The position numbers were made by a program, and so were the translations under genes. Below, in pieces: positions 4,801-30,276 of a stretch of 64,000 nt of DNA (position 1 is the stretch's first letter; each line of letters opens with the position of its first letter). The notes under the pieces are model-generated. The model searched no databases. It was not told the origin of the DNA and saw nothing but the letters and a program-made list of their open reading frames with translations. The stretch lies in contig JAFGMK010000013.1 in the NCBI GenBank assembly GCA_016927565.1, positions 8,796 through 72,795 of the forward strand, read 5' to 3'. Origin of the DNA: Minisyncoccota bacterium. GTDB lineage: Bacteria; Patescibacteriota; Microgenomatia; PFEM01; JAFGMK01.

Positions 4801-6033
4801 TTAGCGCATCATCATTCTCCCGCTGCCCCCGCCAGCGGCGGGGCCAAACGGCAAGACGCCATTGCTCCTGTTTTGAGCGGATTGATTGGGGACGGAAATT
4901 GTACCGGTAATTACCACTTCGCCTTCACTCAGACCGGAAATAATTTCGGTTTCGATGTCGCTGGAAATGCCGACCTCAACAGTCTGGTTTGTCTTCTGAC
5001 CGTCTTTTAAAATTACCACTGCTGCGGTTTCTCCTTGATAATTGATAGCGGTTGAAGGAACGATTAAAATATCGCTTTTTGTTTGGACAATGATACTGGC
5101 GGTTGCCGCCATGTTGGGTAATATTTGGCCGGTGCTGGTATCGAATTGAATGATGACCGGATAATTAGTGACATTGCTGGTGATTGTTCCCACCCGGTCG
5201 ACACTGACAACTTTGCCGGTAAAAGTTTTGCCGCTGACTGAGTCAAGAGTGATAGTGGTTTTTTGCCCGGGTTTAATTTGAGAAACATCAATTTCCGAAA
5301 CATTAAAAGTGGCGATTGGCAGGCCGCCGGTACTGATTGTGGCTACTCTTTGATTTGCCCGGGCGCCGCTGGCGGTTTCGCTGGCGCCGATATTCATTCC
5401 TTCGGCAATAGTAACGCTTTTGACGATCCCGGCAACGGGAGAGGTAATGACCGGAGCGGTGGTTTTATAAGCCAGAGCTGTTGAGTTTAATTTGGCCTCG
5501 GCATTTTTAATAGCGTCGTAAGCGTTATCGTGGGCGACTTCGGCCCGGGTGCGTTGTTCTTTCATTTCCAGGGTTTCATCGCTGTCATGGCCTTTGATTT
5601 CATCATAAACAACTTCGAGCGAAGCCCTGGCCGAGCGATAGTTATTATTAGCCGAGTTAAGCGAGTTTTGAGCGCTAAGATAATTGGAATAGGCCGAAGC
5701 GTAATTCTGTTTACCCTGAACGTCAAGATTAATTTCAACTAACTTTTGACCGGCGGAAACTTCATCGCCGTCACTGACATAAACCCGGCTGACGGTGCCG
5801 CTGGCTTGAGTAGTGATGTTTTCAATGTTTGAGGAAATGATTTTACCGGAAGCCGTAATCGAAGAAACAATCGTTCCGCGTTTTGCCGTTGCGGTTTGAT
5901 TGATTATCTGGGGCTTGTCATTTTTTGACCTCTGTCGGAAAAAAATAACTCCGGCAAGAACGACAATAATGGCCAGAAAAATCCGGGTCTTTGACTTGAA
6001 ATTTTTTTTGAGTGGATTAAGAATCTTTTTCAT
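4801..6033 (-). CDS. efflux periplasmic adaptor subunit (HlyD/MacA family)
   Basis: N-terminal TM, a coiled-coil-rich middle and a beta-barrel-like C-terminus. First gene of the ABC efflux operon. Confidence 0.75.
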   Translation of the reverse strand: MKKILNPLKKNFKSKTRIFLAIIVVLAGVIFFRQRSKNDKPQIINQTATAKRGTIVSSITASGKIISSNIENITTQASGTVSRVYVSDGDEVSAGQKLVEINLDVQGKQNYASAYSNYLSAQNSLNSANNNYRSARASLEVVYDEIKGHDSDETLEMKEQRTRAEVAHDNAYDAIKNAEAKLNSTALAYKTTAPVITSPVAGIVKSVTIAEGMNIGASETASGARANQRVATISTGGLPIATFNVSEIDVSQIKPGQKTTITLDSVSGKTFTGKVVSVDRVGTITSNVTNYPVIIQFDTSTGQILPNMAATASIIVQTKSDILIVPSTAINYQGETAAVVILKDGQKTNQTVEVGISSDIETEIISGLSEGEVVITGTISVPNQSAQNRSNGVLPFGPAAGGGSGRMMMR

Positions 6034-15728: not shown

Positions 15729-15771
15729 AAATTTTTTTGATTTGAGACTGTTGAATAAAAATTTTTTCCCC

Positions 15772-15846
15772 GTCATTCTGAACAAAGCGAAAGATTCCCC
15801 TCGGCAGAGATTATTACCCCCCCCGCCTTTGGCGGGTCAGAATGAC
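15772..15846. promoter_or_regulatory. nested inverted repeats (gtcattctg ... cagaatgac enclosing cccgcc-ttt-ggcggg) in the ychF-rpsF spacer
   Basis: Seen directly in the sequence. An outer 9-bp inverted repeat is separated by 57 nt, with an inner 6-bp tight hairpin. Confidence 0.35.
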
Positions 15847-15927
15847 AATGGATCAAGACGTTATTCAGCCGTCTCTTTTGATTTAAGGCTTGTTTCTTAA
15901 TTATACCTTTGCTATACTCTTTTTCAT

Positions 15928-21513: not shown

Positions 21514-22464
21514 CTAGCTTTTACCCTTAATGATTTCGGAGCGGGACTCGGCTAAAAAAACACCCAATCCAATCAGACCGGCGCCAAGCCAAAAAGGCAG
21601 GCTCATTTTTTCGTCAAGCCAAAAAAAAGCCAGTGGAGCGGCAAAGACCGGCTGAAGATAGGTAAAAATGGTTCCTTCTGAGGCTTCAATCAGAGACATG
21701 CCCCAATTATGAGTGGTATAAGCGATAACGGAGGAAAAAATACTCATGTATAAGATGCCGGGGATAGCTTTAGGGTCAGGGGTAGCAACTCTTAGTGGTG
21801 GTTCCGGTGCTTGATAGGGGAAACGCTGAGGGTTGTAAAGGGCCTTTTGGTTGAGGAAAAGGGGAGTAAGGATTACAACGCCGGAGAAAAAAGTAATGGC
21901 GGTGAGGACTAAGGGAGAGTGTTTATCAGACTGTTTTTTTATCAAGATACAATAAGTGGTCCAGACAAAGTTATGGATTAAAAGTAAAAGATTGCCCCAG
22001 AGATGGGATCTGGCAAAGCCGTTGCCAGCAATGAGGGGTTGGATAACGGTAAGGACGGTGCCTCCTAAAGCAATGGTCAAGCCCAGTCTTTCTCTTTTAG
22101 TGACTTTTTCTTTTAAAAACCAGGCGCCTGAAAGAACAACTAATACCGGGGCCATGGCAATGATGAGTGAGGCGTTAAGAGAGCTGGTTCGGTCAGCGCC
22201 GAAAAAGATTAAAAGCAGAGTAATAGGACCGCCGATGGCCCCGATCCCGCCCAGCTTAATCAGTTGCCGGAGGGATAGAGGTTTTTTTCGAATGGCCATT
22301 AAAAAAGGAACCGAAAAAAGAAGGCTGACGAGAATAAATCGGTAAAACAAAAAGCTGATCGGATCAATGAAGGTTAAAGTGTATTTAACAATCGGGGCGG
22401 CGATGCCCCAAAGAGCGGCGGTAACCAGTAAGAGAAAATAAGCGGTCAACCTTTTTTTATCCAT
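21514..22464 (-). CDS. EamA/DMT-family transporter
   Basis: About 10 predicted TM helices in a duplicated EamA arrangement. Confidence 0.7.
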
Positions 22465-22878: not shown

Positions 22879-23325
22879 TTAACCGAAGGGAGCTTGGGCT
22901 GCTTTTCTGGCAGCTGCTTTGGTCCTAAAGGTTTCTTTCCAGTTTTTGCCTTTGGGTGGAAGGATCCGGCTTAACTGCCAGTCTATCTCAGTCCAAAACT
23001 GTTCACTTTTTTGTTTCTTAATCGCTCTGCCAAGGACCTCCCGGTAACCCTTCCCGGCATGTTTTAACCAAAGGGCGACTTTGCCTATTGTCGCTGAGCT
23101 AACCTTTAGAGTTTCGTTGATTGATTGGTAATCGTAGCCTTTCAAAAGCATGAGAGCAATGGCGACTCTTTTTCCCAGCATGATCTTTTCGGTGGGGCTC
23201 AACAAGTCTTTGAAAAAAAATTTAACTTCTTCTTTGCCGCGCAGGTCATCAATTACATCCGAAAAGAGCTTAAAAACCTGTTTTTCTACTTTCTTTTCTA
23301 AGGGATGTCGGGAAACTTGGGACAT
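22879..23325 (-). CDS. TrpR-like (YerC/YecD family) HTH protein, longer paralog
   Basis: FFFKDLLSPTEKIMLGKRVAIALMLLKGYDYQSINETLKVSSATIGKV...GKGYREVL parallels the 97-aa YerC-like protein at 29983-30276. Confidence 0.55.
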   Translation of the reverse strand: MSQVSRHPLEKKVEKQVFKLFSDVIDDLRGKEEVKFFFKDLLSPTEKIMLGKRVAIALMLLKGYDYQSINETLKVSSATIGKVALWLKHAGKGYREVLGRAIKKQKSEQFWTEIDWQLSRILPPKGKNWKETFRTKAAARKAAQAPFG

Positions 23326-23342
23326 TTTCCTCCTTTAAGAAT

Positions 23343-23372
23343 ATACTTTAATAATTTAAATTATTAAAGTAT
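23343..23372. promoter_or_regulatory. perfect 30-bp palindrome ATACTTTAATAATTTAAATTATTAAAGTAT upstream of the TrpR-like gene, followed by (GGTT)4
   Basis: Seen directly. It ends 18 nt upstream of the start codon and overlaps the promoter/RBS region of the 22879-23325 gene. Confidence 0.5.
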
Positions 23373-23489
23373 GGTTGGTTGGTTGGTTTTTGTCAAGAGT
23401 TACAAGTTGGGCAAGGATAGGAAATGAAGATTCTTAATTGGGGCTTGTGCTGAAGGGGATATTGCAGTTGAAGATTTATTTTTTAAGGT

Positions 23490-23866
23490 TTAAAACAGAG
23501 AGAGTGCGGGTCTTGACGAAGTTTTGGACAGCTTGGCTTCTTTCATAGCGGGGCATATCAGTCGGTTCGAATAATTCCCCGGCGTGGAAAAAAACGGGGG
23601 CTTCTTAGGGAGCCGGGTGGGTGTGGGCGCCGATGGGTTTGGGTCGTTTTTGAATTGAGAAGGGATTTGGGGTTGTCTGGGCATAAACGTCAGCCATTGT
23701 TTGGAGGCGTCTTGGTGAGATAGCAATGATGTTCTTGCCGGTACTTGTTAAAGTGTATTGACTGTCGTAAGATCAGCAAGGCTTTTACTAAGAGCAATAA
23801 AACCATCCGGTTTGAGAGAAATAAGATGGGTTAAATTACCAAATTTGTCTCCTGTTGGGGATTTTG
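23490..23866 (-). pseudogene. possible degraded metallophosphoesterase (YfcE-like) remnant downstream of hisS
   Basis: Minus-strand fragments in different frames read ...IGAHTHPAP* and ...FFSTPGNYS, resembling the GHTH and INPGS blocks of calcineurin-like phosphoesterases. Multiple frameshifts or stops are present. Confidence 0.3.
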
Positions 23867-25189
23867 TTATTTGGCGGAGATTTCTTTCAAAAGATCGTCT
23901 TGAGGAATGGTTTTTTGAGTTCTTTTTTTTAGGTTTTTGATAGTGACAGTTTTATTTTTGACTTCATCGGGACCGATAATGACGGCAACGGGAATGCCTT
24001 TGCGGTCGGCAAATTTTAACTGTTTGTCTAGTTTGGCTGGTTCGGGATAAAGCATAGTGCGGGTATTTTCTTGACGTAATGATTGAGCAATTTCAAGAGA
24101 GTTATTGAAAGTGTTTTCTTGGAAATAGGTGACTAAAACCCGGATTTTAGTAGGGGAAATCTCAATCATTTGCCGGTCTTTGATAAGCTCCACGATTCTT
24201 TCAATGCCAAAAGAGCCGCCGGTAGCCGGAATCGGGCGGCCGATGAAATTGCTGATAACTTGATCATAGCGGCCGCAGCCGGCAATGGAACCAACATTTC
24301 CGTCAAGGACTTCAAATTCCCAAATAGGGCCGGTGTAGTAAGCCAGGCCTCGAGCGATGTAGGGACAAAATTGGAAACGATCTGGTTTGATTCCGGCCTG
24401 GTTAAGATAATTAAAAATTTCGGTTAGCTCCTTGATTCCCTCTAAACCAATGGGGATTTTTTTTAAGCTCTTTTGATATTTTTCCAAAAGCTCCTTGCTG
24501 GAGCCGGTTTCGGTGATTATCTTTAAGATCTTTTCGGCAACTTGGCGGTTGATATTTCTTTTTTCCAAGAGTTCTTTTAAAACAGCTTTTGGACCGATTT
24601 TAGGCAGCTTATCGATGGTTAGGCAAATGGGCATGAAGTCTTTTCCCTCGGCGCCAGCTAACTTAATAATTCCGTTTAAAAACTTACGATTGCTGATGCT
24701 GGCCTGGAACTTTGAAAAACCCAAGGACTTAATCGCCTCAATGCCCATTTCGATAAATTCAGCATCACAAATTACGGAAGAACTGCCGATGGTGTCGGCG
24801 TCACACTGAGTGAACTCGCGATAACGGCCTTTTTGGGGTTTTTCGGCCCGCCAGACATTTTGGATTTGATAGCGCTTGTAGGGCAGAGGAATTTGGTTAA
24901 TATTTTCAGCCACGGCCCGGCACATGGAGATCATGACTTCGTATTTGAGCATTACTTCCCGGCCGCCCTCATCAACAAAGCGGTAAAAAAGCTTTTCGGC
25001 TTCTTTGCCGGCCTTGCCGGCAAAGATCTCGACTGGTTCCAGGGCCGGAGTTTGCAGGGGTTCATAGCCGTATTTTTCAAAGACTTTTTTAAAAGTGTTG
25101 ATAACATAATCCCGGACCTGGATATCGTCTGCAAAAAAATCCCGGAAGCCGGCAAGGCGTTTTGGGACGTCTTTTGTTTGTTTGTTCAT
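23867..25189 (-). CDS. hisS: histidine--tRNA ligase
   Basis: Class II aaRS motifs and an N-terminus (RLAGFRDFFADD...) typical of HisRS; 440 aa. Confidence 0.9.
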   Translation of the reverse strand: MNKQTKDVPKRLAGFRDFFADDIQVRDYVINTFKKVFEKYGYEPLQTPALEPVEIFAGKAGKEAEKLFYRFVDEGGREVMLKYEVMISMCRAVAENINQIPLPYKRYQIQNVWRAEKPQKGRYREFTQCDADTIGSSSVICDAEFIEMGIEAIKSLGFSKFQASISNRKFLNGIIKLAGAEGKDFMPICLTIDKLPKIGPKAVLKELLEKRNINRQVAEKILKIITETGSSKELLEKYQKSLKKIPIGLEGIKELTEIFNYLNQAGIKPDRFQFCPYIARGLAYYTGPIWEFEVLDGNVGSIAGCGRYDQVISNFIGRPIPATGGSFGIERIVELIKDRQMIEISPTKIRVLVTYFQENTFNNSLEIAQSLRQENTRTMLYPEPAKLDKQLKFADRKGIPVAVIIGPDEVKNKTVTIKNLKKRTQKTIPQDDLLKEISAK

Positions 25190-25227: not shown

Positions 25228-26727
25228 TTAAAAAGTTAAATTGGTTTTTAGAAACTTGTTTGGGTTGGCAAGATAAAGCTTTTTAAATTTTAAAAAAAGC
25301 TTTAAGCCCTGAGCGTATTCTTCTTTGTCTCGGGAGTAGGAGAGGCGAAGCCAGAAACCAAGCTCAGGATCGGTTTGCCAGCGTTTTTGGTCAAAAGCAA
25401 AGCAAGGACCAATTTGAGTAACGAGGTTAGTGCAAAGATAGAGATTAAGACAGAAATCAAATTGATTTATTTTTTCAAGACCTCTGATCTTGATGAAAGT
25501 GTTAAAGGCAGAGATTTTTGGAGTTCGGGTGATAAGATCTTTTTTTAAGATTCTGATCGCCCTGTCATACATCTGGCTGTAATAGTTTTTGATTCTTCGG
25601 TTATAAGCCGAATAGCCTCGGTAGGTGTCTTTTAATTTTTTAATACTCAGATTGGCAATGGTGGGGCTGAAATTACTAAAAGCTTTTTTAGTCGTTTTAA
25701 AAGTCCGGTTTAGGTTTTCAGTTGAGATAAGCTTAGTTTTTATGGTTTGGATAAAGCTGTCTAAAGCAATGACGCCAGTAAAACAGGAGGCGGCAGCAAA
25801 ACATTGTCGGCCTTCAGAAATTTTTTCGATGCTTTTTAAAAGTTCCTTATTTTTAGAGAACAGATAACCAATTCGGAAGCCGGCCAAATTTTTGGACTTA
25901 GAGTAACCCTTAACAATGACAATATTATTGAGGGCGTTTAATTTTCTGGCAATTAGATCAGTTGGAGCAGGGGGCTGATTATAGATTAGTTCGGAGAAAA
26001 GTTCATCAACAAGCAAAAGAATCTTTTTTTTCTGACAGATCTGAATCAGCTTTTCAAGTTGCTCAGGGGAGTAAATCTGGCTGCTGGGATTACTGGGCTG
26101 AACTAGGGTGATTAGCCTGGTTTTAGGATTAATTTTTGCAAGGATATCGCTTAAAGCATTAAAACTGGTTAGGCCGTTTTTTAATGGTTTGATTTGAAAA
26201 GCCTCTTGGTAGGCAAGGCTGTAAAAACCAGCTAAGTATTTATAAAGATAGTAGGTGGGAGTGGCAATAATCACTTCGGCTTGAGGATTTTTGTTTTTGA
26301 TAAACTCAAAAACTTGGGAGATGGCGCCGGTGCTGCCCTCGGTTAGGGCAAAGTCTTGATAGTTGTAAATTGGCTTATCTTTAAACTTGCTGTTTTCCAT
26401 CAGGGCCAATGTCTGGCGGGCTTCGGTATTGCCTAGGGGGCAGTTATAGCTGCGGTAATAACGGTTTTTTTTAAGATCAGAGATAATTTGGTCGAGATAG
26501 TCGCGAAAAGCCAAACAATCAGAAGTTCCTGCTGAGAGCTTGAATTTGTCAAAAGGGATTTGTGATTTAACCAAAGCCGAAAGATCGGGACAATCGTCAG
26601 TAAACTTATCGTTAAACTGATAATAATTGAATCCAGTTTGTTTTTTGGTTTGTTTGTATAGATTCTGGATTATTTTTTCTGCTTTATTTTTATAGCTTGG
26701 CGAGGGATATTTTAAATTGCCAGTCAT
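25228..26727 (-). CDS. PLP-dependent aminotransferase class I/II (fold type I), unusually long (499 aa)
   Basis: YNCPLGNTEARQTLA region and a PLP-lysine block KGYSKSKNLAGFRIGYL. Confidence 0.7.
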   Translation of the reverse strand: MTGNLKYPSPSYKNKAEKIIQNLYKQTKKQTGFNYYQFNDKFTDDCPDLSALVKSQIPFDKFKLSAGTSDCLAFRDYLDQIISDLKKNRYYRSYNCPLGNTEARQTLALMENSKFKDKPIYNYQDFALTEGSTGAISQVFEFIKNKNPQAEVIIATPTYYLYKYLAGFYSLAYQEAFQIKPLKNGLTSFNALSDILAKINPKTRLITLVQPSNPSSQIYSPEQLEKLIQICQKKKILLLVDELFSELIYNQPPAPTDLIARKLNALNNIVIVKGYSKSKNLAGFRIGYLFSKNKELLKSIEKISEGRQCFAAASCFTGVIALDSFIQTIKTKLISTENLNRTFKTTKKAFSNFSPTIANLSIKKLKDTYRGYSAYNRRIKNYYSQMYDRAIRILKKDLITRTPKISAFNTFIKIRGLEKINQFDFCLNLYLCTNLVTQIGPCFAFDQKRWQTDPELGFWLRLSYSRDKEEYAQGLKLFLKFKKLYLANPNKFLKTNLTF

Positions 26728-26750
26728 GTTATTTCTCCTTTTTTTAAAAG

Positions 26751-28427
26751 TTAAATAATTGGGATTTGGCGGTCGTAAACGGGATACTTCAGACTGTTTC
26801 CCAAATCAAGCTCTTCCCAAAGATCTAAAAAAATTGTTAGGCGCAATAGAGCTTGGGCTAATCTTTGCCTTGATAAACCTCCGTAAGTGATTCTGGTCCA
26901 AAATTTATTAGAGGGATTTTTTAAACCAAAGCATTGACTACTCATCGCCACAACGCCGGTGGTTAAAAAGAGTTTTAAGATTTTATCAAGGCCGTTGTTG
27001 GGGCTCGGGCTTTGCCAGCCGGCAAGGGTGTTAAAAGCAGCTTGGTCAGGAGATCGCCAGGATTGGCGTTGGTTTAGCTCTTCCAGGACAATTTCGATTA
27101 AAGCGAGATTATCCTGATAGTATTGCTGACTTTGCTGGCGCCAGTTTTGCCGGTCTTGATAAAAATTAGCCAATTGATCAGCTTGGTAGCTTGACAGCCA
27201 GGGGCTTCCGGTTAAGCTTTCAAGAGCGGCCTTTGTTTGGCCAAGGGCTTGCGCGTTTCCAGTTTTTAAAAATCCATAGTCAGTTTGAGTTTGGACTGAT
27301 CTGGCTAAGGCTTCAAACTGAAGATAAGGTTCGATAGTTAAGGGAGGGTTGCTTAGGCGAGAGATGCTGGCATAGTTAATTAATCTTTCCAGGGGTCTGT
27401 TTTTGGTGGCTAAAAGACCAATTCGAGGTCCGGCTAAGTTAGCGGATTTTGAAAAGCCATCAATAATTACAATTTGATCAAGAGCGCCTTCTTCGGCGGC
27501 AATCCTTAGTGGGTTGGGAGAGTTGTCTTGGTTGAGCCAAAGCTGATCGAAAAGAAGGTCCAGACAGATAATAATTCCTCTTTGTTTGGCTAGTTTGATG
27601 ATTTGCCTAAAATCCTCGTCCGGGTAGGTTTCGCCATTGGGGTTATTGGGGAGAGTGATTACTAGGGCTTTGGTGTCTTGAGGAAGTTTTCTGATCAGTT
27701 CGCTGGGAGTGGGGAAAAACTGACAGGTTCTGTTTTGATCTTTTTCTGAGATAAGACGACTAATCGGGAGGCCTTTGTCTTGGGCAGAAAGAGCCAAAAC
27801 ATAATAACTGGGACCCAAAAGAACAACTCGGTTTTGGGAGGGCGACTCTTGGCTTGTTTGTCGGGCAAGGGTTTCGTAAAAAAGATCGATAGCATAGGTT
27901 GAGGATGGGGTTAAATAAACATCTTGGGGCAGATAATCGGGGCTGTCAAGCCGAGGGCCAATTTTGGTGTTTAAAAGAACAGCTCCTGCCCAACGGCTAG
28001 CTTCTCGACCGCCAGGTGAGTCATAGTTAATCATTAAATCTGGTTGGTCGAGGCCGTCTTTTAGGAGCTTGGTAGCGCCTGACCAGGGAGTAAGACAGCC
28101 AACGCCGGAACCGAGCTCGGCCGGTTGAGACCAGTTAGTTTTAAATGCTTGATTTAGATAGGGAAGGAGGCGGGGACCATAAACAGTTTTGGCTTGAATT
28201 ACAGTGGCAAAATAAGTCCCAAAGCCAGAATCTACCCAAGGAGATCGGTTAATGGCTTGGCAGATTTGGTCAAAATAATCGCTAAATTTAGGAGAAGTCA
28301 GCATTGTTTTCATTGCTTCGAGAGTGCTTTGGTATGTTTCTTGGCTGAATTGGGTTAAAAGCCAGTCGAGGTCCACCCCGGCCTGGTTTTCGGCAGTGAC
28401 TTGGTTGAGAGTCAATAACTCAATCAT
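26751..28427 (-). CDS. PLP-dependent aminotransferase-like protein (fold type I), divergent, 558 aa
   Basis: PLP-lysine block IIDGFSKSANLAGPRIGLL with large N- and C-terminal extensions. Confidence 0.6.
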   Translation of the reverse strand: MIELLTLNQVTAENQAGVDLDWLLTQFSQETYQSTLEAMKTMLTSPKFSDYFDQICQAINRSPWVDSGFGTYFATVIQAKTVYGPRLLPYLNQAFKTNWSQPAELGSGVGCLTPWSGATKLLKDGLDQPDLMINYDSPGGREASRWAGAVLLNTKIGPRLDSPDYLPQDVYLTPSSTYAIDLFYETLARQTSQESPSQNRVVLLGPSYYVLALSAQDKGLPISRLISEKDQNRTCQFFPTPSELIRKLPQDTKALVITLPNNPNGETYPDEDFRQIIKLAKQRGIIICLDLLFDQLWLNQDNSPNPLRIAAEEGALDQIVIIDGFSKSANLAGPRIGLLATKNRPLERLINYASISRLSNPPLTIEPYLQFEALARSVQTQTDYGFLKTGNAQALGQTKAALESLTGSPWLSSYQADQLANFYQDRQNWRQQSQQYYQDNLALIEIVLEELNQRQSWRSPDQAAFNTLAGWQSPSPNNGLDKILKLFLTTGVVAMSSQCFGLKNPSNKFWTRITYGGLSRQRLAQALLRLTIFLDLWEELDLGNSLKYPVYDRQIPII

Positions 28428-29524
28428 GCCGCCCTCTCTTTAAAATTACTGGTTATAAAATCGACGAACCCCTTAAAAAGTTCTTTGTTGCTGGGGGGGA
28501 GGGGGACGCTCTGAGCGATGGTAGCTAGATACTGACTGGCCAGGTCCTCCAGTTCAATTGGAATATTTTCTGCTCCAAGATCGCGAACAAAAACTTCTTG
28601 GGCAAGTTGAAGTCTTCCGATTCGTGAGGCAAGTTTAACAAGGCGTCTGTTAAAGCCGGTTAAAACCTCTCTTTCGTTTCTAAGCTCCCGGACTTCGGGA
28701 CTGATTAATTTGGCAGCGATTTCAAGATAGGGATCTTCGTATTGAATGGACCACCAGCTGACAAAGAATCCGGGTTTTTTTAAAGTTTTGGTTTGTCTTT
28801 TTCCGGTAATTATTGGTCCAACTCTTTTGGTTAAATAGATGGGAAGGCAGGTGTTTGACAGTTGCTCTGCTTGTGAGAGCTCAGTCTCTGATTGCCAGGC
28901 TCCGGGATTTTTAAAAAAGATTTGACTGGTTTCCGAGGGGTAGGTGCAAAAAAGGGTTTTTAGTTCTGGCTTGATTCTTAAAAAATCTAAAAATTCTGGA
29001 TAAAGGAACTGATCTGGTTTTTCTGCTACTGTTGGCATGGTGTTTTGATCTTGGTTTCTAAAAAGAACTCCGGCGGAAAATCCAGCTAAAAAGACTTGTT
29101 GGGCCAGAACTGCTGGAGAGGAGGATAATTTGATTAAAGAGCCGACTGTATCTTGGGGTAAGTATCTTTTTCCTTCAGGGGTGGTTTGTTCCTGGGGAAA
29201 AAGAGTTTCTAGATAAATTAGGGTGGAAACAGCCTCAATAGCCTTAATGATAGCTGGGTCATAACCTTGTTGGTCAATCGTTTGGCCTAGTCCGTAACTT
29301 TTTTCAAAAAGCTGTTGGACATCATCGCTTCGGCTGGTGCCAATGGCAGCTAGGGCTTTCTTGACGGCTTGGAGTTTTTCGGCAGGTTGACCGTCGAAGC
29401 TGGGGTCGCGACTTAATGCCAATCGGTAAAGATCGCTTCTTTTTAAACCAAGCTTCGGATTAAAAATAGGTGGTTCATCTGGAACTTGGATTGTCCTGTT
29501 TAGAAGTTGCTCTTCTAGTGGCAA
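28424..29524 (-). CDS. hypothetical protein, first gene of the operon with the two PLP enzymes
   Basis: 366-aa ORF with no recognised motif. It overlaps the next gene by 4 bp, suggesting translational coupling. Confidence 0.5.
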   Translation of the reverse strand: MPLEEQLLNRTIQVPDEPPIFNPKLGLKRSDLYRLALSRDPSFDGQPAEKLQAVKKALAAIGTSRSDDVQQLFEKSYGLGQTIDQQGYDPAIIKAIEAVSTLIYLETLFPQEQTTPEGKRYLPQDTVGSLIKLSSSPAVLAQQVFLAGFSAGVLFRNQDQNTMPTVAEKPDQFLYPEFLDFLRIKPELKTLFCTYPSETSQIFFKNPGAWQSETELSQAEQLSNTCLPIYLTKRVGPIITGKRQTKTLKKPGFFVSWWSIQYEDPYLEIAAKLISPEVRELRNEREVLTGFNRRLVKLASRIGRLQLAQEVFVRDLGAENIPIELEDLASQYLATIAQSVPLPPSNKELFKGFVDFITSNFKERAA

Positions 29525-29603
29525 GCCAGTGAACTCCCTCCATTCTGGGTATTATGGTTGTTTTTTCCCGCGTGGTCATGTTGATTCCTTTCTTTAAAAT
29601 TAA

Positions 29604-29690
29604 ACCACCCCGCCGGTGGCGGGGATCGTCTTTAATAAATTAAACTGATAAAAAAATATCAGCTACACCCGCCGGAAAGCGGGGAGTGGT
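29604..29690. repeat. pair of related GC hairpins (ccccgccggtggcgggg and cccgccggaaagcgggg) flanking an AT palindrome ctgataaaaaaatatcag
   Basis: Seen directly in the 450-bp spacer between the YerC-like gene and the PLP-enzyme operon. Confidence 0.45.
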
Positions 29691-29982
29691 GAGCTTGATT
29701 ATTTCTGACTTGTTTTGTCTGGCCCATGGTCAACCTCTTTATTGCTGTATATTACTATGGTAGCATGATGTAATCATTATAACATAATTGTCAAATTTTT
29801 GGGCGGGAAAGGGCTGTTGAATAAAAATTCACTCACCGTTACCCTGAGCCAAGCTAAGGATCCTTTTCGGCGGAGACTCTCCCGTTTACAGCTGGCAGAA
29901 AACAGGGTGTCGTATGCAGACATTTTAAAAATATCGATGTTTTTGGGTGCCTTGCGGGAGTGGTTAGACACGATTGGTCTTA

Positions 29983-30276
29983 TTATTTTTTCTGAAGCCT
30001 TTTTAAAACTAGCCGGTAACCGCCGAGGCCATGGTTAAGCCAATGGGCGACTCGGGTAACAGTCGTTGTGGAAACCCGGCATTTTCGGGCGATTTGCAAG
30101 TAAGAGTGTTTTTTTTCGAAAAGTAATTTGGCGATTTGAAAACGAATGGTGAGGTCGTTAATTTCTTTCAAAGTCAGAAGATCGCGGAAAAAATCGGCGG
30201 CTTCTTTTTGGTTCTTAAGTTTTAAAATTGCCAGTAATAATTCGTTGGTTGATTTTTTTGTTTTTTCAGAGGCCAT
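29983..30276 (-). CDS. TrpR-like transcriptional regulator, YerC/YecD family
   Basis: 97 aa with FFRDLLTLKEINDLTIRFQIAKLL...YLQIARKCRVSTTTVTRVAHWL...GGYRLVL, the canonical YerC/YecD pattern. Confidence 0.75.
   Translation of the reverse strand: MASEKTKKSTNELLLAILKLKNQKEAADFFRDLLTLKEINDLTIRFQIAKLLFEKKHSYLQIARKCRVSTTTVTRVAHWLNHGLGGYRLVLKRLQKK

Follow-up and report, generated by a model that had tools for sequence, protein, structure and literature searches.

A probable histidine-limitation operon with a YerC/HisR-type repressor and a leader-peptide attenuator in Candidatus Pacebacteria

What does a small regulator of the TrpR family control when it stands beside two divergent aminotransferase-like genes and a gene that matches no described family? 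The question is posed by a locus in a 64-kb window (the whole stretch of DNA analysed here) from a metagenome-assembled genome of Candidatus Pacebacteria, a member of the Patescibacteria, or Candidate Phyla Radiation (CPR), with a tiny genome and a nutrient-dependent way of life. By analogy with TrpR, the initial annotation had suggested an amino-acid or amine conversion pathway with the regulator at its head. The analysis presented here favours a histidine-limitation operon under dual control, built like the trp operon of Escherichia coli but tuned to histidine, and we regard this reading as rather probable.

All of the genes in question lie on the minus strand. The yerC/hisR-like gene (29983-30276), which encodes a helix-turn-helix regulator of the TrpR family of 97 amino acids (aa), is separated by a 458-bp spacer (29525-29982) from U366 (28424-29524), a gene for a 366-aa protein that has a TTG start with a GGAGGGAG Shine-Dalgarno sequence and is the operon's first cistron here. 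PLP-A (26751-28427; 558 aa) follows, encoding a divergent fold-type I aminotransferase-like enzyme dependent on pyridoxal 5'-phosphate (PLP), and then PLP-B (25228-26727; 499 aa), its paralog. The last gene of the unit is hisS (23867-25189), encoding a histidine--tRNA ligase (TIGR00442, 383 bits against a cutoff of 287). U366 and PLP-A overlap by 4 bp (28424-28427), PLP-B lies 23 nt downstream of PLP-A, and the 38-nt gap from PLP-B to hisS contains no terminator; hisS is a member of the transcription unit, and more than a neighbour. The gene order, protein sizes, 4-bp overlap, PLP-lysine motifs and two GC hairpins described in the initial annotation are all present in the window. Its placement of the regulator at the head of the operon did not stand, as the spacer contains a promoter of its own together with a His-codon leader attenuator, to which the paired hairpins belong. 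The operon is thus predicted to start inside the spacer, with yerC not heading the same transcript in the window.

The architecture of this spacer carries the main argument. A sigma-70-type promoter, TTGACA-18-CATCAT (29765-29794, minus strand; 10/12 matches in a promoter scan), is followed by the degenerate inverted repeat ATTAC...GTAAT and then by a 22-aa leader open reading frame (ORF), MGQTKQVRNNQAHHSPLSGGCS (29659-29727, minus), with an AGAGG Shine-Dalgarno sequence and tandem His codons, CAC CAC, at 29686-29691. Hairpin 1 (regions 1:2; 29668-29683, minus; CCCGCU/GGCGGG) starts 8 nt after the first His codon, so that the two codons end 2 nt 5' of it, and the leader stop codon falls just 3' of it. 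An AT-rich stretch then leads to hairpin 2 (regions 3:4; 29596-29631, minus), an intrinsic terminator identified by a terminator scan, with the sequence CCCCGCC-ACC-GGCGGGG (29608-29624), a stem of 7 bp, all of them GC, and the U-rich tail UGGUUUAAUUUU. The arms of the two hairpins are nearly identical, and the 3' arm of hairpin 1 is complementary to the 5' arm of hairpin 2, which allows an alternative 2:3 antiterminator; when co-transcriptional folding is modelled with a ribosome stalled at the His codons, this pairing comprises 7 bp with a folding free energy (dG) of -18.9 kcal/mol. Taken together, the promoter, the leader ORF and the two hairpins with interchangeable arms read as a classical leader-peptide attenuator, and attenuation of the window operon would be the predicted outcome. 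The element matches no catalogued RNA family: at the gathering threshold Rfam returned only tRNAs in the window and the loci, no Rfam family matched the spacer, and the histidine leader RF00514 (His_leader) gave no match there even at E<=10.

Several smaller features of the window may be noted beside this spacer. Some 190 nt (29795-29982) separate the yerC stop codon from the leader promoter, compared with only ~45 nt in L007, the nearest relative to share this layout. A 34-aa ORF (29475-29579, minus) with an AAAGGA Shine-Dalgarno sequence begins directly behind the terminator of the attenuator; it overlaps the start of U366 in another frame and may be a small upstream ORF or a product of chance. 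The pattern CCCGC-N2-8-GCGGG occurs four times in the window against 0.37 expected; the copies at 4828 and 15822 were considered as attenuators and rejected, one lying inside a coding region and the other lacking a U-run. An intergenic region at 15745-15850 holds the GC hairpin CCCGCCTTTGGCGGG within a longer inverted repeat, GTCATTCTGA...TCAGAATGAC; it has no U-run and forms no attenuator.

The arrangement is conserved across related loci. The sample of loci with the PLP pair comprised ~14 non-redundant loci, scans of 185,579 species-representative genomes and of metagenomes having given 5 and 10 loci, respectively. An attenuator with a His-His (HH) leader lies upstream of the PLP pair in L004 (and its duplicates), L007, L010, L016, L017, L021, L022 and L023, and in L027 it precedes a U366 homolog instead. 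The HH pair is conserved in 10 loci, the window included, while its codons vary synonymously (CACCAC, CATCAC, CATCAT), and the leader peptides diverge nearly everywhere outside HH and the residues dictated by the RNA stems. Across leaders, region 1 begins 6-8 nt and region 2 17-21 nt from the first His codon, and the stop codon lies within or just after region 2, where a terminating ribosome would mask it. With region 1 masked and the RNA ending before region 4, the 2:3 antiterminator forms in 9/9 leaders (5-8 bp; dG -13.5 to -22 kcal/mol). In ~400 kb of loci, a regular expression for the full signature recovered these leaders alone, and 100 random sequences of 64 kb gave no match.

In three further loci there is no separate leader. 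In L001 (4438-4482), L002 (7850-7885) and L014 (5210-5243), yerC carries a C-terminal extension with His codons that overlaps a hairpin-1-like stem, and a terminator comes next. The yerC tail of L014, ...NHQNLAPAG, is clearly the same sequence as the end of the free-standing leader of L027, ...SHHYLAPAG, and in the lineages of all three loci the leader ORF appears to have become fused to the repressor gene.

The regulator itself leads to the same amino acid. It matches the Pfam Trp_repressor family (PF01371) at 80.5 bits and the YerC/YecD model TIGR02531 at 76.0 bits, above the cutoff of 42.2, whereas the TrpR equivalog TIGR01321 scores 35.3 bits, under its cutoff of 67.25. The closest structures in the PDB are 3G1C, the HisR of E. 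eligens (E=3.4e-17, residues 8-94), and 3FRW (E=4.4e-17). These comparisons place the protein within the TrpR family but outside TrpR proper, in the YerC/HisR (histidine repressor) branch, and the relevant amino acid would therefore be histidine and not an aromatic one. The analogy with TrpR drawn in the initial annotation has thus survived in part: the module does appear to be related to an amino acid, but the aromatic connection has given way to histidine (76 bits to TIGR02531; 3G1C as best match). YerC of B. subtilis is HisR, a histidine-dependent repressor in Firmicutes, and R. gnavus HisR has been assayed with L-histidine as co-repressor by electrophoretic mobility shift or fluorescence polarisation on purified protein (Ashniev et al. 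2022, PMC9413887). By analogy, the YerC of the window is a probable histidine-responsive repressor, whose co-repressor would be L-histidine.

A plausible operator for this repressor can be proposed from the relatives. In Roizmanbacteria-like loci, the promoter TTGACA-17-TATCAT is followed, directly after the -10 element, by an identical palindromic ATGTTAACACGTTAATA, one copy per locus, and this motif is a plausible candidate YerC operator. The conserved GTTAAYAYGTTAAT lies directly 3' of the -10 element in L004, L016, L023 and L027, once per locus, and a degenerate inverted repeat holds that position in the window. These candidate operators are of the type GTTAAC-AC-GTTAAT, as against cacTTTA-N6-TAAAgtg for the HisR of Firmicutes (PMC9413887).

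The window also contains a second, longer YerC/TrpR-like paralog, YerC2 (148 aa; 22879-23370, minus), which scores 54 bits against Pfam and 41.7 bits against TIGR02531, narrowly missing the cutoff of the latter. A perfect 26-bp palindrome, ACTTTAATAATTTAAATTATTAAAGT (23345-23370), overlaps the YerC2 promoter, TTGACA-17-CATACT; this palindrome is unique in the window, and its half-sites look like the Firmicutes HisR consensus, although the spacing differs. YerC2 ends in a terminator of its own, and next comes a gene for an EamA-family transporter (21514-22464); the spacer between the two was considered as a leader region and rejected, as it holds a plain terminator only. Between hisS and the YerC2 promoter lies an ORF-poor gap of ~540 nt (23326-23866), in which no RNA family was found at the gathering threshold.

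Independent links to histidine come from sister loci in which the sensing device has been replaced. Both yerC and an HH leader are missing from L006 and L011, whose upstream regions share long conserved blocks. With permissive filters, the upstream region of L011 aligns end to end with the T-box RF00230 (E=1.1e-4), and it has a T-box core, AAGGAUGGGACCGCG, and a terminator. Stem I is reduced in both loci to a 5-bp hairpin whose 7-nt loop, GUCACGA, carries the His codon CAC; two of its pairs change compensatorily between L006 and L011, and the T-box bulge UGGG fits the C73 discriminator of tRNA-His. We interpret these leaders as a reduced, T-box-like variant with a His specifier. Moreover, in L006 a tRNA-His(GUG) gene with encoded G-1 and C73 (7860-7932) lies between the T-box-like leader and PLP-A, immediately ahead of the latter, so that it would be controlled by an element sensing the same tRNA. 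After the T-box terminator comes, in both loci, another long hairpin that is conserved and carries a U-run, CCUCUCGUUCC...GGAAYGAGAGG UUUUUU (L011, 7590-7650; L006, 7745-7815).

Other neighbours of the PLP pair point in the same direction. A hisS gene lies downstream in the same orientation in 5 loci (the window, L011, L014, L021 and L027), following a radical S-adenosylmethionine (SAM) gene in L014 and a radical SAM gene plus an M20 peptidase gene in L021. The radical SAM proteins, encoded between PLP-B and hisS, map to 8490-9686 in L014, where a SPASM domain is also present, and to 5601-6836 in L021. In L004, from Roizmanbacteria, the HH attenuator is followed by hutH, a gene for a ThrC-like PLP protein, PLP-A and PLP-B; this hutH scores 550 bits against TIGR01225, above the equivalog cutoff of 539, and no hutU, hutI or hutG was seen in any retrieved locus. 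Genes for AstE/AspA-like hydrolases come after PLP-B in L007, L017 and a contig from the Joint Genome Institute (JGI), and after a U366 homolog in L028, and further hydrolases include the M20 peptidase of L021 and a NicX/M29-like protein in L007.

As for the enzymes, both window proteins carry a PLP-lysine motif (DGFSKSANLAGPRIG and KGYSKSKNLAGFRIG), and PLP-A and PLP-B match Pfam Aminotran_1_2 (PF00155) at 59 and 102 bits, respectively, against a cutoff of 19.7. The earlier suggestion that they are not standard HisC, AspC or DapL is borne out by the NCBIfam models, all scores lying far under the equivalog cutoffs. The top scores were 101 bits for PLP-B (PRK07568, cutoff 389) and 84 bits for PLP-A (GntC, cutoff 415), and the hisC model gave 74 bits against a cutoff of 277; none of the named aminotransferase equivalogs (HisC, AspC/AspAT, DapL/DapC, AlaA, TyrB, GntC) was reached, the scores being three- to five-fold under the NCBIfam cutoffs. 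The catalytic apparatus is nonetheless retained in both families: the PLP-lysine, the aspartate that contacts the pyridine nitrogen, the asparagine of the NP motif, the phosphate arginine and the alpha-carboxylate arginine are all kept, the invariant residues being K327, D290, N262, R335 and R512 in PLP-A and K277, D241, N213, R285 and R461 in PLP-B. Both are accordingly predicted to be active PLP enzymes that bind amino acids.

An AlphaFold2 (AF2) model of PLP-A (predicted local distance difference test, pLDDT, 87) retrieves archaeal and bacterial aspartate/aromatic aminotransferases as its top Foldseek matches (E~1e-17; template modelling (TM) score 0.75-0.84; 15-18% identity), and shows an extra N-terminal helical region and a helical insertion of ~90 residues. 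The pair resembles Subgroup I-gamma-type aminotransferases, such as the aspartate aminotransferase of T. maritima (1O4S) and the aromatic aminotransferase of P. horikoshii (1DJU/1GD9), and GntC, in its fold type I and in all PLP- and carboxylate-binding residues. It differs from them in its low identity (15-18%), in a length 100-170 aa greater, owing to the N-terminal helical extension and the ~90-aa helical insertion, in the replacement of the DExY tyrosine by phenylalanine in both PLP-A and PLP-B, and in occurring always as a coupled A/B pair. The two families share ~25% identity, are each other's closest relatives (profile-profile E=6e-62 over 478 columns) and have an unusual helical insertion and a C-terminal tail in common; they are ancient paralogs. 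Their homologs (17 clusters for PLP-A, ~74 for PLP-B) were found only in Patescibacteria (Pace-, Chisholm-, Roizman-, Davies- and Dojkabacteria); outside this group, scores fall abruptly to ordinary aspartate aminotransferases.

The pair is a constant one. In the ~14 non-redundant loci PLP-B always comes after PLP-A, with a 4-bp overlap in 8/14, a distance of 1-3 nt in 3 and of 18-26 nt in 3, and because the two are almost always coupled in translation and strictly co-occurring they probably work as a heteromer. The association of a TrpR-family regulator with two divergent PLP enzymes, proposed in the initial annotation, is likewise conserved: a yerC-like gene adjoins the pair in 11/14 informative loci, which represent different lineages of Patescibacteria; the gene shares the strand of the pair in six loci and one JGI contig and is divergent in four, and in one further locus it lies 3.4 kb away. 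The surroundings are otherwise unrelated, and in one case the genes are embedded in a cluster of ribosomal-protein genes, secY and infA.

U366 behaves differently. The statement that the 366-aa protein has no recognisable family holds in that neither Pfam nor NCBIfam gave a match and a word-index homolog search returned U366 alone, but an exhaustive HMMER search detected 13 distant relatives, in most of which the similarity covers the N-terminal ~350 aa of proteins of 514-1106 aa. Pfam scans of ten of these relatives found no domains, and an AF2 model (pLDDT 80) is all-alpha, with no fold match among PDB structures. U366 is no core partner of the PLP pair, being absent from every other PLP-pair locus searched; a 108-aa ORF at the corresponding position in L007 was examined as a possible homolog and found to be unrelated. 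U366 homologs do lie directly behind yerC in 3/3 further contexts retrieved (4/4 with the window): yerC is followed by U366-645 in L008 and by U366-792 and an AstE/AspA-like protein in L028/L029, and in L027 a divergent yerC accompanies the same promoter motif and an HH attenuator, behind which lie U366-1037, an aminotransferase of 347 aa and hisS. The 347-aa enzyme, of normal size, was rejected as a close relative of PLP-A or PLP-B. Because no other PLP-pair locus has U366, yet its retrieved contexts all follow yerC, U366 belongs to the regulon as an optional member, without being tied to the pair.

How might such an operon work? When histidine is plentiful, YerC/HisR would repress the promoter at 29765-29794. 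When charged tRNA-His is scarce, a ribosome would stall at the His codons and cover region 1, leaving region 2 to pair with region 3 and blocking the 3:4 terminator, and RNA polymerase would transcribe on into U366, PLP-A, PLP-B and hisS. With His-tRNA plentiful, the ribosome would reach the leader stop codon and cover region 2, and the terminator would form. A His attenuator and a His T-box are both switched on when charged tRNA-His is scarce, and the cargo should therefore raise the supply of histidine. The HisRS encoded by hisS would increase charging capacity, and the PLP-A/PLP-B heteromer would convert a scavenged precursor to L-histidine, the simplest chemistry being transamination, with imidazole-pyruvate or a similar 2-oxo or acylated compound as the substrate; in the acylated variant, a deacylase would then process the product. 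U366 and the hydrolases and lyase of sister loci (AstE/AspA-like, M20, NicX/M29-like and HutH) would be lineage-specific accessories of a salvage toolbox, in which the hydrolases and HutH might act as alternative one-step histidine sources. The gene and RNA architecture is conserved, and three interchangeable devices for sensing histidine are found upstream of it by computation; from the sequences alone, the acquisition of histidine is the most likely role of the regulon, and the reaction suggested for the PLP pair is a proposal built on this regulatory logic.

Several observations weigh against this interpretation. When the footprint of a stalled ribosome is masked in equilibrium folding, most leaders still settle on the terminator, and since the terminator is the most stable structure there, the attenuation model depends on kinetic, co-transcriptional folding. 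In the classical trp attenuator, equilibrium also favours the terminator and the choice is kinetic. The U-tract of the window terminator is interrupted (UGGUUUAAUUUU), where its relatives have U6-U7, and a leader with only two His codons stands at the lower bound among known attenuators, like trpL of E. coli. At the window promoter, the operator motif of the Roizmanbacteria-like loci is only degenerate (ATTAC...GTAAT), and repression of that promoter by YerC is accordingly putative. The T-box score of L011 is 29.1 bits against a gathering score of 93, and a search of L006 with RF00230 gave no T-box match, even with permissive filters. The nearest structural relatives of PLP-A are generic aspartate/aromatic aminotransferases, with nothing specific to histidine about them, and a histidine ammonia-lyase is hardly what one would expect in a starvation-induced operon, as in L004, unless the enzyme works in the reverse direction or serves some other purpose.

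Could the histidine-sensing devices serve hisS, with the PLP enzymes as ordinary housekeeping aminotransferases (aspartate or aromatic, for example) riding in the same unit? Amino-acid-specific leaders classically control hisS, a gene found in 5 of the loci, and the structural neighbours of PLP-A are indeed general aspartate/aromatic aminotransferases. Yet there is no hisS in the unit behind the attenuator or yerC in L001, L002, L004, L007, L016, L017, L022 or L023, the PLP pair being the constant cargo, and a pair found in few Patescibacteria lineages, with 5 loci in 185,579 species genomes, fits a housekeeping enzyme poorly; we consider this explanation unlikely, although not negligible. A Hut-like module for the catabolism or utilisation of histidine, induced by histidine through YerC and using the PLP enzymes to deaminate histidine or its products, might be read from the hutH at the operon head in L004, given that aminotransferases are reversible. 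Such a module is distinctly improbable, however, as a His attenuator and a His-specifier T-box act at low charged tRNA-His, contrary to what catabolism would require, hisS and tRNA-His genes are found alongside, and hutU, hutI and hutG were seen in none of the retrieved loci.

The short conserved peptide gene followed by a hairpin also recalls a cluster for a ribosomally synthesised and post-translationally modified peptide (RiPP), in which the HH peptide would be a precursor modified by the PLP enzymes (and by radical SAM/SPASM proteins in some loci) and the hairpin would set the ratio of precursor to enzyme. Radical SAM/SPASM proteins after PLP-B in L014 and L021, with peptidases nearby, would suit such a cluster; but a radical SAM gene occurs in just 2 of ~14 loci, L006 and L011, the loci with a T-box, have the PLP pair but lack a peptide of this kind, conservation of the peptide is limited to HH and the residues dictated by the RNA stems, and the end of yerC carries the peptide as a fusion in L001, L002 and L014, all of which makes a RiPP cluster very improbable. 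Finally, the two hairpins are both downstream of yerC, in a family named for the Trp repressor, and could be taken for tandem yerC terminators or dispersed GC-rich repeats beside a tryptophan/aromatic repressor. That reading is scarcely credible, since the interval from yerC to the hairpins holds a promoter and a leader ORF that has a Shine-Dalgarno sequence to itself, the two-hairpin unit also exists where yerC is divergent or 3.4 kb away (L016, L017, L022, L023 and L004), the regulator scores under the TrpR equivalog cutoff and over that of YerC, and no Trp codons or trp genes are associated with the loci.

The histidine-limitation operon can be set beside several known systems. With the trp operon of E. 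coli it shares a TrpR-family repressor, a leader ORF with two tandem regulatory codons and 1:2, 2:3 and 3:4 hairpins ending in an intrinsic terminator; it differs in having His codons, a regulator of the YerC/HisR branch and no canonical biosynthetic pathway as cargo, and in the fusion of the leader ORF to the repressor gene in some of its Patescibacteria relatives. The enterobacterial his leader (RF00514) contains seven His codons and, similarly, couples a His-codon leader peptide to a downstream terminator, whereas the leader described here has two His codons, no match to RF00514, and hairpin arms that are short, near-identical GC blocks with an AT-rich spacer between them. The T-box (RF00230) is matched end to end by L011, and the CAC codon and UGGG bulge fit tRNA-His, but Stem I has shrunk to a 5-bp hairpin that presents the codon in its terminal loop of 7 nt, and these elements occur in sister loci and not in the window. 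Upstream of the histidine genes of Firmicutes, HisR, His T-boxes and leader attenuators with His codons stand in for each other, and HisR regulons hold the operon for his biosynthesis along with hisXYZ and yuiF, which encode histidine transporters (Ashniev et al. 2022, PMC9413887). The same regulator family and the same three interchangeable His-sensing mechanisms are met here upstream of one gene set across lineages, and the difference lies in the cargo, which consists of two Patescibacteria-specific PLP enzymes, an uncharacterised protein family, hydrolases and hisS. Patescibacteria were outside the coverage of the Firmicutes study (PMC9413887).

While the kinds of regulatory device are themselves already known, a non-homologous His attenuator, a reduced T-box variant and leader-repressor fusions are new here, and the searchable literature yielded no description of ribosome-mediated attenuation, T-box-like leaders, fusions or these gene families in Patescibacteria. 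Members of this group are generally considered incapable of making amino acids. It is tempting to suggest, although only tentatively and as a possibility that falls somewhat short of even, that the PLP-A/PLP-B heteromer, aided according to lineage by U366 or by AstE/AspA-like, M20 or HutH proteins, constitutes an unrecognised route to L-histidine in Patescibacteria, and that in the leader-repressor fusions the translation of the repressor reports the availability of His-tRNA to the downstream terminator.

Patescibacteria account for a large share of bacterial diversity, and they have tiny genomes and many proteins without known function. Three independent devices of the regulon described here (HisR-type repressor, His-codon attenuator and T-box-like leader) lead to histidine, and so do the associated hisS, tRNA-His and hutH genes. 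By this regulatory logic, at least three uncharacterised families (PLP-A, PLP-B and U366) may be assigned to histidine, and an AstE/AspA-like hydrolase recurs with them. What had been hypothetical aminotransferases would thereby become a testable hypothesis of histidine supply in these bacteria.

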